Virus record (IMG/VR): IMGVR_UViG_3300021399_000119
Location: 51,544 to 115,543 of that record
Length of the DNA: 64,000 bases
DNA from: a virus
Taxonomy: Duplodnaviria > Caudoviricetes
Strand: one strand, 5' to 3'
A model generated the notes under the pieces. That model ran no database searches. It had not been told where the DNA came from and worked only from the letters and a program-made list of their open reading frames with translations. The position numbers and the translations under genes are program-made. Shown here piece after piece: positions 48,941 through 51,578 of this stretch. The stretch's first letter is position 1. Each line of letters opens with the position of its first letter.

Positions 48941-48950
48941 TGCTTTGGTG

Positions 48951-49032
48951 TTTCGGTACTCAGGAGTCGAACCTGGTATCGCTAGGTTATGAGCCTAGAA
49001 TGGTTTATAGATTTCCGTTCCACTCTACCGAA
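48951..49032 (-). tRNA. tRNA-Met/Ile2(CAT), atypical
   Basis: CTAGG-CTCATAA-CCTAG; TTCGACT; enlarged D-loop; 3' end ACACCA rather than ACCA. Confidence 0.75.
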
Positions 49033-49039
49033 GTTTATA

Positions 49040-49435
49040 TTAAAATTCTTGCCTTTTTAATTCTTCTAAACGTTTTTTGGTAGGTTCAATTGCTTCTAAT
49101 AACATTTCTTTTAACACATCTAATTCTGCGACTAAATCTTCTACATATTCAATAGCATCTGATGAAGTTTTTATTTCTGCTTTTGAAGCAGCTACTTTTT
49201 TGCCAATCTTTTTGTCGTATTCGTCGCCTTCACAAAGTCTAGCTATTTTTTTTGTTACAAAGCCCATGCTTGAATATTGTCCGTTAACAGTATTAAGTGC
49301 TTCTCTAACATCTTTAATTTTTCTATCTAATTTGGTGCCAAATCGGTCTTTAAAATAAGAAAAACCTTTAACAATAGTAGTAGTTCCATTATAAATTTCT
49401 TTTTGATTTTGATAACAAATAATTCCTTTTTTCAT
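49040..49435 (-). CDS. hypothetical phage protein
   Basis: ARLCEGDEYDKKIGKKVA..KA motif. Confidence 0.75.
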   Translation of the reverse strand: MKKGIICYQNQKEIYNGTTTIVKGFSYFKDRFGTKLDRKIKDVREALNTVNGQYSSMGFVTKKIARLCEGDEYDKKIGKKVAASKAEIKTSSDAIEYVEDLVAELDVLKEMLLEAIEPTKKRLEELKRQEF

Positions 49436-49706: not shown

Positions 49707-49717
49707 TTATAAATCAT

Positions 49718-49792
49718 TGGTGGAGGTGGCTGGAATCGAACCAACATTGTACAGGCGGTACCACTTCCTGACCTTTGCCAAAATTCACCCCC
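49718..49792 (-). ncRNA. tmRNA tRNA-like-domain-like mini RNA (Ala acceptor)
   Basis: GGGGGTG/CACCTCC-ACCA with G3:U70; T-arm TTCGATT; no D-stem or canonical anticodon arm. Confidence 0.6.
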
Positions 49793-49796
49793 ATAT

Positions 49797-49873
49797 TGGT
49801 GGAAGCGGAAAGACTTGAACTTTCAACCTCTCGGTTATCAGCCGAGTGCGCTAACCAGTTGTGCCACGCTTCC
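49797..49873 (-). tRNA. tRNA-Ile(GAT)
   Basis: Cloverleaf; CCA. Confidence 0.95.
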
Positions 49874-50136
49874 AGAGACCTCGGGTCCGAAGAACACCGA
49901 AGTATGATCCTGCAGATTTAGCCTCATCTGCAAAAGCCTCAGTTCTTTTCAAACCTGAACACTGATAAAACGGTTATATCGCTTAGTATGCCATGCGCAT
50001 CTGTCGATCAATTAACCAATATTTGATCCAAGCTAAGCTAGACTGTTTACACCTAACCTCCGACACAGACAACTGGTAGCATTTCGTTTGCTCACGCTTA
50101 TCTTTCTTGGTTAGAGGCATAAGAACCATTCCTCTT
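49874..50136 (-). ncRNA. putative ~260-nt structured RNA
   Basis: Multiple hairpins filling the tRNA-Ala to tRNA-Ile interval. Confidence 0.45.
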
Positions 50137-50137
50137 A

Positions 50138-50213
50138 TGGTGGACCTGGAGGGGATCGAACCCTCTACCTCCTGCTTGCAAGGCAGGCGTTCTCCCAGAT
50201 GAACTACAGCCCC
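50138..50213 (-). tRNA. tRNA-Ala(TGC)
   Basis: Cloverleaf; G3:U70; CCA. Confidence 0.95.
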
Positions 50214-50219
50214 AGAAAA

Positions 50220-50655
50220 AGCAAAGCCATGATTCGGCTACAATAAATAAGAGTCCTTTCAGATTTCTTCGGTACCCGCGAGCTCTTTCAAACTGCAAGG
50301 CATTCCTTCTATCTTCTTCATTCTTTTTATTTAAAGTCCCTACTACACTCTTTGCCACCGTTCACATTTCACATTTCGCCTGCTGATACAGGTCGTGCTA
50401 CTAGGATTTAAACGTAGTAATGAAGAATGTCTTCGCCTCAAGTATTGGTTCAATATATACTATATCAGTAGTAGTATATCTAAGCTGCCTTCAGTTGCAG
50501 CATCACATCCCCAGTTATTAGCCAGGTCTCTACCACTTTGTGCACCTAATGTTGTTGGGTAGTGGCACCCACCTCAACCTACCGACTCTTCCAGAACTCT
50601 CAACATTAGCGTATAAGTCCATCATCTACATACGTAGGCCTTCTTTACAGAGGAA
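50220..50655 (-). ncRNA. putative ~430-nt structured RNA
   Basis: Stems 50314-50322/50419-50427 and 50546-50554/50601-50609; hairpin 50454-50479. Confidence 0.5.
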
Positions 50656-50658
50656 TTT

Positions 50659-50733
50659 GGGTCAGGGTAGGAGGACTCGAACCTCCAACTTCCACGTTCC
50701 AAGCGTGGCGGTCGACCATTGACGTATACCCTG
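50659..50733 (-). tRNA. tRNA-Pro(TGG)
   Basis: Cloverleaf, loop CTTGGAA; 3' end ACCCA. Confidence 0.9.
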
Positions 50734-50743
50734 ATATGCTTTT

Positions 50744-50772
50744 ATTATATCTTATTATAAAAACTTTGTCAA
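50744..50772 (-). promoter_or_regulatory. sigma70-type promoter for the tRNA array
   Basis: TTGACA-17-TATAAT just 5' of tRNA-Pro. Confidence 0.85.
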
Positions 50773-50794
50773 GCTTTTTTTGATATTTTTTTAA

Positions 50795-51492: not shown

Positions 51493-51578
51493 TGGTGGGC
51501 AGAGAAGGAGTTGCACCTCCGTTGTTTCTATGTGGCGGATTTACAGTCCGCTGCCCTCGCTACTAGGCATACCTACCC
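51493..51578 (-). tRNA. tRNA-Tyr(GTA)
   Basis: Loop CTGTAAA; variable arm; T-loop TGCAACT; CCA. Confidence 0.9.

Follow-up and report, generated by a model that had tools for sequence, protein, structure and literature searches.

An anticodon-less alanine-type RNA gene in the tRNA array of a rumen phage and its probable relation to the tag-less tRNA-like RNAs of other phages

The tRNA array of a rumen phage carries a 75-nt RNA gene (the element) with the acceptor stem, T arm and encoded CCA of an alanine-accepting RNA and with no anticodon arm. It is very likely a real, selected gene for an anticodon-less RNA of the alanine type. To the fuller reading, in which it is a functional small RNA gene and a divergent member of a class of phage RNAs that have alanine identity but neither tag nor anticodon (prototype, mycobacteriophage DS6A), we give about an even chance. 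The gene lies on the minus strand at 49718-49792 of the window, by which we mean the whole 64-kb stretch of DNA that was analysed. Within a 115.5-kb IMG/VR record, the window occupies the 3' 64 kb. Its GC content is about 29%, and nearly all of its transcription is from the minus strand; DNA of the window is also present in sequencing runs from sheep and cattle gut.

RNA positions are numbered 5' to 3', nucleotide n lying at window coordinate 49793 - n (Table 1). The acceptor stem (nt 1-7/65-71, GGGGGUG with CACCUCC) forms 7/7 pairs, including a G3:U69 wobble that is the equivalent of G3:U70, and is followed by discriminator A72 (the A73 equivalent) and by CCA encoded at nt 73-75. The T stem (nt 48-52/60-64) forms 5/5 pairs, and the T loop reads UUCGAUU. 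The 5' strand of the acceptor stem and the T arm are 38 nt apart, and the sequence of the element does not allow an anticodon arm with a 5-bp stem and a 7-nt loop. The original prediction of a 75-nt RNA with a G3:U70 acceptor, CCA, a normal T arm and no anticodon arm was thus borne out in every part. The D-loop equivalent contains UUGG followed by CAAAG, without the UCGAC motif; A8 stands where tRNAs have a near-invariant U8, and there is no D stem.

Table 1. Window coordinates of the element, its parts and the neighbouring array members
Feature	Coordinates	Strand	Basis or remark
Anticodon-less alanine-identity tRNA-like RNA gene (element)	49718..49792	-	sequence; RF00023; R1; homologue L255/L264
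Acceptor stem 5' strand, nt 1-7 GGGGGUG	49786..49792	-	7/7 pairs with 49722-49728
D-loop equivalent, nt 8-20	49773..49785	-	R1 alignment; starts A8 A9
Helix replacing anticodon arm (P2, nt 21-26/38-44)	49749..49772	-	R1 alignment
T arm, nt 48-64	49729..49745	-	sequence; identical in L255/L264 homologue
Acceptor 3' strand nt 65-71, discriminator A72 and CCA nt 73-75	49718..49728	-	sequence
tRNA-Ile(GAU)	49797..49873	-	ARAGORN and Rfam; same cassette as element
Cassette non-coding spacer, 263 nt	49874..50137	-	80.5% identical in L255; absent from five closer relatives
tRNA-Ala(UGC), normal	50138..50213	-	ARAGORN and Rfam; upstream cassette boundary

In place of an anticodon arm, the original prediction had drawn a short CAGG/CCUG helix. 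This helix lies at nt 23-26/38-41 and gains two pairs when the element is aligned to R1, a covariance model of related phage RNAs that is described below. The model draws the pairs G21-C44, U22-A43, C23-G41, A24-U40, G25-C39 and G26-C38, with U42 bulged and an 11-nt apical loop at nt 27-37 (P2). The D region, which had also been described as unpaired, is left unpaired in the R1 alignment; RNAfold instead favours a 7-bp hairpin across nt 10-27, which is weaker in a homologue from another phage. The family-type fold with P2 reaches -20.4 kcal/mol against an optimum of -23.7 kcal/mol in RNAfold, and the pair probabilities of P2 are at most 0.07. With a z-score of only -0.63, the fold of the element is no better than those of shuffled sequences.

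ARAGORN called neither a tRNA nor a tmRNA on the element, and the RF00005 tRNA model scored it lower than the best clan hit, which had 18.5 bits. The tmRNA model RF00023 matched it with 28.6 bits (E 1e-8), which is below the 47-bit gathering threshold, over model positions 1-374 with the middle deleted. In the cmscan alignment it is the acceptor and T arms alone that contribute to the score. The acceptor stem and T loop equal the bacterial tmRNA consensus (GGGGguGA ... CCacCUCCACCA), which likewise has no anticodon, and the near-universal tmRNA D-loop motif of the GGAUUCGAC type is missing, this motif and helix 2 being aligned as deletions. In contrast to bacterial tmRNA, the element also has no mRNA-like domain, resume codon, tag frame or pseudoknots; a search for tag-like frames across the array returned one unconvincing hit, ending at 50791. 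Because an ordinary tRNA-Ala, that of the window, scores 23.6 bits on RF00023, the Rfam tmRNA hit alone discriminates poorly. The layout originally proposed, that of the tmRNA tRNA-like domain (TLD) without its message, stands as a layout, while the likeness to tmRNA behind it is one of acceptor and T arms and does not extend to the D-loop motif.

The tRNA array extends over 46.5-51.8 kb of the window, and 15 tRNAs were called in it by ARAGORN and 16 by Rfam, all of which encode CCA. Among them is a normal tRNA-Ala(UGC), the separate alanine tRNA that the original prediction had noted. The canonical tRNA-Ala (50138-50213 in the window; L108:3476-3551 in another phage) and the element have in common the alanine identity set, the T arm, CCA, their length and their place in an array; unlike the tRNA, the element has no anticodon arm or D stem and has A8 for U8. 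It may thus be asked whether the element is an anticodon-less derivative of tRNA-Ala that acts independently of SmpB, either, charged or simply folded, as an acceptor/T minihelix decoy or sponge for a factor that recognises the acceptor ends of tRNAs, or as a non-ribosomal donor of alanine. Conceivable targets would be AlaRS, EF-Tu, CCA-adding or repair enzymes, and a host anti-phage toxin acting on the acceptor stem or CCA end by modification or cleavage. The tRNA-like size of 75 nt, the place in a tRNA array, acceptor and T arms as near to the phage tRNA-Ala of L108 as to the tmRNA consensus, and the missing tmRNA D-loop motif are all in keeping with such an origin. We nevertheless regard it as unlikely: the interior of the element is identical to tRNA-Ala at 11/40 positions (27.5%, about random in this ungapped comparison), A8 replaces a near-invariant base, R1 places a family-type bulged helix at the family position, and this reading comes without a candidate partner or target of its own. 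Intact ends combined with an interior so unlike tRNA-Ala also argue against neutral decay.

We scanned both strands of the 64-kb window for minihelices, defined as a 7-bp acceptor stem, a 5-bp T stem, a T loop and NCCA. The scan yielded only known tRNAs, the element and one tRNA-Tyr missed by ARAGORN. The latter, tRNA-Tyr(GUA), is 86 nt long with an encoded CCA (51493-51578, minus strand) and was also found by Rfam with 43.9 bits.

RNAs of comparable plan occur in many other phages. A scan of IMG/VR with one restrictive pattern matched at least 118 stretches, and the first 80 loci listed included 55 with normal tRNAs and about 19 with TLD-only RNAs of 77-88 nt. Fifteen IMG/VR RNAs, the DS6A copy and a copy from a 318-kb phage were aligned (alignment A2, n = 17), and R1 was made from these 17 TLD-only RNAs with the element left out. 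They share an acceptor stem, followed by a D-loop of about 12 nt that is left unpaired, a helix, a 3-nt linker and the T arm. The helix, the counterpart of P2, has 5-8 bp with a one-base 3' bulge, together with an internal UAA(A/G)CC loop and a small inner hairpin of 3-4 bp. It covaries at 6/6 pairs, and 89.6% of its cells are paired, against 70.5% in shuffles and at most 54% when the partners are slid.

The element scored 51.7 bits on R1 (E 3.6e-10, model positions 1-82) and its homologue in a second phage 46.4 bits, compared with 65-83 bits for training members and at most 30.2 bits for the tRNAs of the window, of which tRNA-Ala was the highest. Because the tRNA-Ala of L108, which has the same acceptor stem as the element, reaches 44.2 bits, the interior of the element is worth only about 7.5 bits on this model. 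The R1 alignment draws the same helix pairs in the element and the homologue and puts the bulge at the family position; A8 and the opening GGGGGUGAAUU..GG of the element likewise agree with the family and with the tmRNA consensus. The element lacks the UAA(A/G)CC loop and inner hairpin of the family, the hairpin being aligned as deleted with the 11-nt loop instead, and it contains no D-loop motif of the UUCGAC or UUAGAC type. Because both the D-loop motif and the inner hairpin are missing, recognition of the element by SmpB is doubtful. From these alignments we judge it rather likely that the element belongs with the phage TLD-only class, a membership that is probable but not secure.

TLD-only RNAs of uncultured phages often have a GGGGGUG/CACCUCC acceptor and an opening, GGGGGUGAAUUGG, identical to those of the element, and their one-base 3' helix bulge is at the same place. 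They are 77-88 nt long and have the covarying 5-8-bp helix, the UAA(A/G)CC loop and the 3-4-bp inner hairpin, where the element instead has its 11-nt apical loop and the CAAAG segment in the D-loop. Most of them stand alone, in phages of 43-66% GC, whereas the element is part of an array. A canonical example is the stand-alone, 81-nt TLD-only mini-tmRNA of IMGVR_UViG_2061766007_000586 (127213-127293; L068:1501-1581, minus strand), which scores 45.8 bits on RF00023 and is missed by ARAGORN. This 318-kb phage encodes an NrdD that is 71% identical to that of the window phage. At three further loci (L103, L127 and L113), ARAGORN called full-length tmRNAs of about 300-340 nt with unidentified tags; these calls are spurious, the genes being in fact TLD-only genes of 78-85 nt, and calls of this kind are a likely source of mis-annotated phage tmRNAs.

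The prototype of the class is that of DS6A, the one phage in which tag-less tRNA-like heads of tmRNA had been described. Hudson, Lau and Williams list 'Mycobacterium phage DS6A (TLD only)' (PMC4131195), and the 2025 tmRNA database contains nine 'Standard, no CDS' sequences (PMC11915505). According to the former paper, tmRNA is strongly inhibited by a molecule of similar kind, which may act through titration of SmpB (Mao 2009 as cited in PMC4131195); the latter likewise reports that E. coli tmRNA is inhibited by the DS6A form (Mao 2009 as cited in PMC11915505). What defines a TLD is an alanyl acceptor together with a T arm and a D-loop that has no stem and is bound by SmpB (PMC3968760). We located the TLD-only gene of DS6A at NC_023744 28478-28560 (tmRNA Website tmID 11587). 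Like the element, the DS6A RNA is phage-encoded and small (about 75-83 nt for the two), with a 7-bp acceptor stem, G3:U70, A73, a UUCGAUU T loop and a short helix for the anticodon arm, and with neither a tag frame nor a phage SmpB; a search for an SmpB gene found none in the record of this phage, in DS6A or in the 318-kb phage. Both RNAs also have GGUACCG just 5' of the 3' strand of the helix. The DS6A RNA keeps a GGUCGAC D-loop motif and the inner hairpin, both of which are absent from the element, and it scores 43.2 bits on RF00023 against 28.6 bits. It ends in CUA, where the element ends in CCA, and its gene lies alone between protein genes in a stretch of 69% GC, while the element lies in the tRNA array of a phage of 29% GC.

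Other small RNAs offer parallels as well. Stable RNAs C and D of phage T4 (species 1 and 2) are small stable RNAs of the T4 tRNA cluster that are released by tRNA processing. They are longer than the element, at about 120-140 nt, and no alanine identity is known for them. The CDS-less tmRNAs of jakobid and oomycete mitochondria and of Mallomonadaceae plastids likewise have the tRNA-like part without a tag frame and are thought to still help at stalled ribosomes (PMC11915505). These organellar RNAs, which we liken to the element by description only, are mostly in two pieces (permuted) and occur together with an imported SmpB (PMC11915505).

To find other copies, we scanned metagenomes for the junction formed by the tRNA-Ile 3' end, AUAU and GGGG. 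Two contigs (L255 and L264) of another rumen phage carry a 74-nt homologue that differs from the element at 8 positions (89.3% identity), with no pair broken. In the acceptor stem, G5A and C67U together form a compensatory change from G:C to A:U, and A66G converts U6:A66 to U.G; in P2, A24G converts A24:U40 to G.U. The run of U residues at nt 10-13 is one U shorter, and the remaining differences are the D-loop change C16A, the apical-loop change G37A and U47A in the linker. Four of the 8 differences thus fall in stems and preserve pairing, the deletion and both transversions fall in loops, and G3:U70, A73, CCA and the T arm are unchanged. When the same changes were placed at random, all 18 pairs survived in 4.1% of trials, and 18 intact pairs were combined with at least 4 stem hits in 0.36%. 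One further variant, A27G in the loop, occurs in a DNA contig from another sheep sample, bringing the known variation of the element to two distinct sequences and one SNP. The tRNA-Ile is 100% identical between the two phages, with 0 changes against the 8 in the element. As judged from this small sample of substitutions, the element is under selection on its structure rather than in random decay, and it evolves faster than its tRNA-Ile neighbour. A consensus of the two homologues computed with RNAalifold was discarded as an artefact of a MAFFT gap at column 1.

These changes bear on whether the element could be a non-functional pseudo-tRNA or pseudo-TLD, left behind in a mobile cassette with its ends intact only through youth. 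Such a remnant would fit with the absence of the element from five close relatives, with its faster evolution than that of tRNA-Ile and with a fold no better than shuffles. It would not easily account for an interior that has diverged to saturation from any tRNA next to 35 end positions that are perfect, for four stem substitutions that all keep pairing (one compensatory pair included) while the indel and transversions sit in loops, or for the retention of G3:U70, A73 and CCA in both copies. We consider a remnant improbable. No full tRNA or tmRNA occupies this site in any of the relatives, and the single homologue retrieved retains the anticodon-less form, with changes that all preserve structure. 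The combination that the original prediction had named as counting against it, a full gene in relatives and random decay in this copy, was not observed.

The surroundings of the element indicate how it is exchanged among phages. It starts 4 nt past the CCA of tRNA-Ile(GAU), a spacing similar to that of other junctions in the array, and lies at an array boundary in the window, 283 nt before an ORF at 49040-49435. Contigs that encode an identical product of this ORF are 100% copies of the same phage from several samples, and its homologues (73-95% identity) led to five contigs with the same flanks. In these five closer relatives, similarity to the window ends right after the CCA of tRNA-Ala (50138) and restarts at 49717, just past the CCA with which the element ends. 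About 200 nt of unrelated filler take up the whole stretch in between, and the element is absent. Because filler replaces this stretch in all five, 49718-50137 is an exchangeable cassette and the element is dispensable. The homology breakpoints at 49717/49718 and 50137/50138 (loci L083-L087) are the 3' CCA ends of array members, and this suggests, from the alignments, that tRNA arrays are reshuffled as cassettes bounded by tRNA ends. In L084, tRNA-Ile is followed by a tRNA-Ser(UGA); an origin of the element from this tRNA-Ser was considered and rejected, as the two have no similarity.

In the phage of L255, the block of tRNA-Ala, spacer, tRNA-Ile and element is kept whole between different flanks, and a tRNA-Met begins 2 nt past the CCA of the homologue. 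The tRNA-Ala of the cassette is 74% identical between the two phages. The 263-nt spacer has near-identical flanks around a hypervariable centre and looks like a structured RNA of some kind; a contig from a metatranscriptome library (X6) spans 49959-50100 within it. Four relatives were fetched through the HAD-family neighbour of the L255 copy, and 4/4 are without the element.

A boundary position of this kind could also be read as tRNA-like processing punctuation, in which the minihelix only directs cuts by RNase P and a 3' nuclease and so frees a spacer RNA, a tRNA or a downstream mRNA. The location 283 nt before the ORF at the edge of the array, and inter-phage breakpoints that fall exactly at CCA ends, are as such a signal would have them. 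We think it quite improbable that the element is no more than that: G3:U70, A73 and the encoded CCA are conserved though processing needs none of them, and in L255 the tRNA-Met 2 nt past the CCA would supply the cut.

Wider searches did not bring further copies. Exact patterns for the 5' 21-mer, the 3' 25-mer and the 33-nt conserved core of the element had no match in IMG/VR, and only the tRNA-Ala, not the element, was matched in a phage GenBank collection. A pattern on the shared motif GUGGUACCG was set aside, since it retrieved only L111 and noise from coding sequences, and the 10-nt match in L111 may be due to chance. Of 61 loci fetched as NrdD-anchored relatives, a large tRNA array is present in only one, which is without such an element; the relative MT835493 has a single tRNA.

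The 3' ends of tmRNA and tRNA genes are common integration sites of phages, and a temperate phage might carry a fragment of a host ssrA or tRNA gene as an attachment site. The chance that the element is such a fragment seems very remote. Both halves of the acceptor stem are present, which makes it a complete small gene; it lies in the middle of a tRNA array; and neither its 25-nt 3' end nor a 27-nt internal pattern has an exact match among 185,579 prokaryote species represented by one genome each. Because no exact match exists in these genomes, the element is very unlikely to have been copied from a host gene as an attachment site.

What the RNA may do can be approached from its parts. RNase P needs only an acceptor/T minihelix, AlaRS charges minihelices, and EF-Tu binds charged acceptor/T helices. 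Because of these minihelix requirements, the element should be excised, alanylated and bound by EF-Tu, and because it has no anticodon, it cannot decode. The element would be transcribed together with the tRNA array, a cut by RNase P 4 nt past the CCA of tRNA-Ile would free its 5' end, and its 3' end would be trimmed back to the encoded CCA. Host AlaRS, which needs G3:U70 and A73 (PMC3968760), could then charge it via G2:C71, G3:U70, G4:C69 and A73. The resulting Ala-RNA would bind EF-Tu and, if its elbow is recognised, host SmpB, and would compete for SmpB and stalled ribosomes with the tmRNA of the host. Either ssrA tagging would then be blocked, or the stalled peptide would be taken up without a degradation tag.

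Competition with host tmRNA, as reported for DS6A, is by this analogy the best-supported use of the element, which we put forward tentatively. The mechanism itself, in which SmpB and tmRNA are the parties competed with, is possible but somewhat doubtful for this RNA: the reading is weakened for this copy because the D-loop motif is missing and SmpB holds that loop (PMC3968760). It is also conceivable, if rather unlikely, that the element is no SmpB decoy and instead acts from its mobile cassette as an alanine-charged anticodon-less RNA, in tag-less rescue or as a sponge for enzymes of the acceptor end. In the first case it might sustain phage protein synthesis while mRNAs or tRNAs are being cut by host defences; in the second it might sequester an anti-phage enzyme of the host whose target is the acceptor end of tRNAs.

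The SmpB-decoy idea has already been published for phage DS6A (PMC4131195, PMC11915505), and the element is a stripped-down variant of a published, little-studied phage RNA class. With about 19 TLD-only RNAs in the first 80 loci listed, this is a common and almost unannotated phage gene, which standard tools miss or mis-call as full tmRNA. The element widens the class to low-GC rumen phages and shows a stripped-down form inside tRNA arrays that moves as a cassette. If TLD-only RNAs are charged and reach the ribosome, they would give phages a direct handle on bacterial ribosome rescue, which would matter for the conflict between phage and host and for trans-translation as a target of antibiotics.

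Transcription signals were found upstream in the array. A sigma-70-type promoter with 12/12 consensus positions lies at 50772-50744, ahead of tRNA-Pro, and no consensus promoter was found directly before the cassette. The upstream promoter serves tRNA-Pro and a roughly 430-nt spacer (50240-50772, minus strand), a region that contigs from two RNA libraries (X6 and X8) cover from 50240/50253 to 50724 at 100% identity, and a terminator-like hairpin is located at 50239-50225, just before tRNA-Ala. The Logan contigs of libraries X6 and X8 do not span 49718-49792, which is neutral, as small structured RNAs assemble poorly.

Several other RNAs of unusual form were observed in this array and in those of related phages. 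At about 48945-49036 of the window (minus strand) lies a tRNA-like RNA. It combines a clean CAU anticodon arm (CUAGG-CUCAUAA-CCUAG) and a GGUUCGACUCC T-loop region with an odd, long D region and an odd 3' end; neither ARAGORN nor RF00005 calls it, and it is 84% conserved in L264. The arrays of related phages include a 115-nt tRNA with an interrupted anticodon region (L070:1374-1488, minus strand), an 80-nt tRNA-like RNA with an oversized anticodon loop (L076:12102-12181, minus strand) and a 93-nt 'tRNA-Phe' with a long extra segment (L069:1501-1593, minus strand). At L284:457-1002, the translation of a related HAD_SAK_2 gene matches its database protein only when TGA is read as Trp, a reading that hints at a recoded relative or host.
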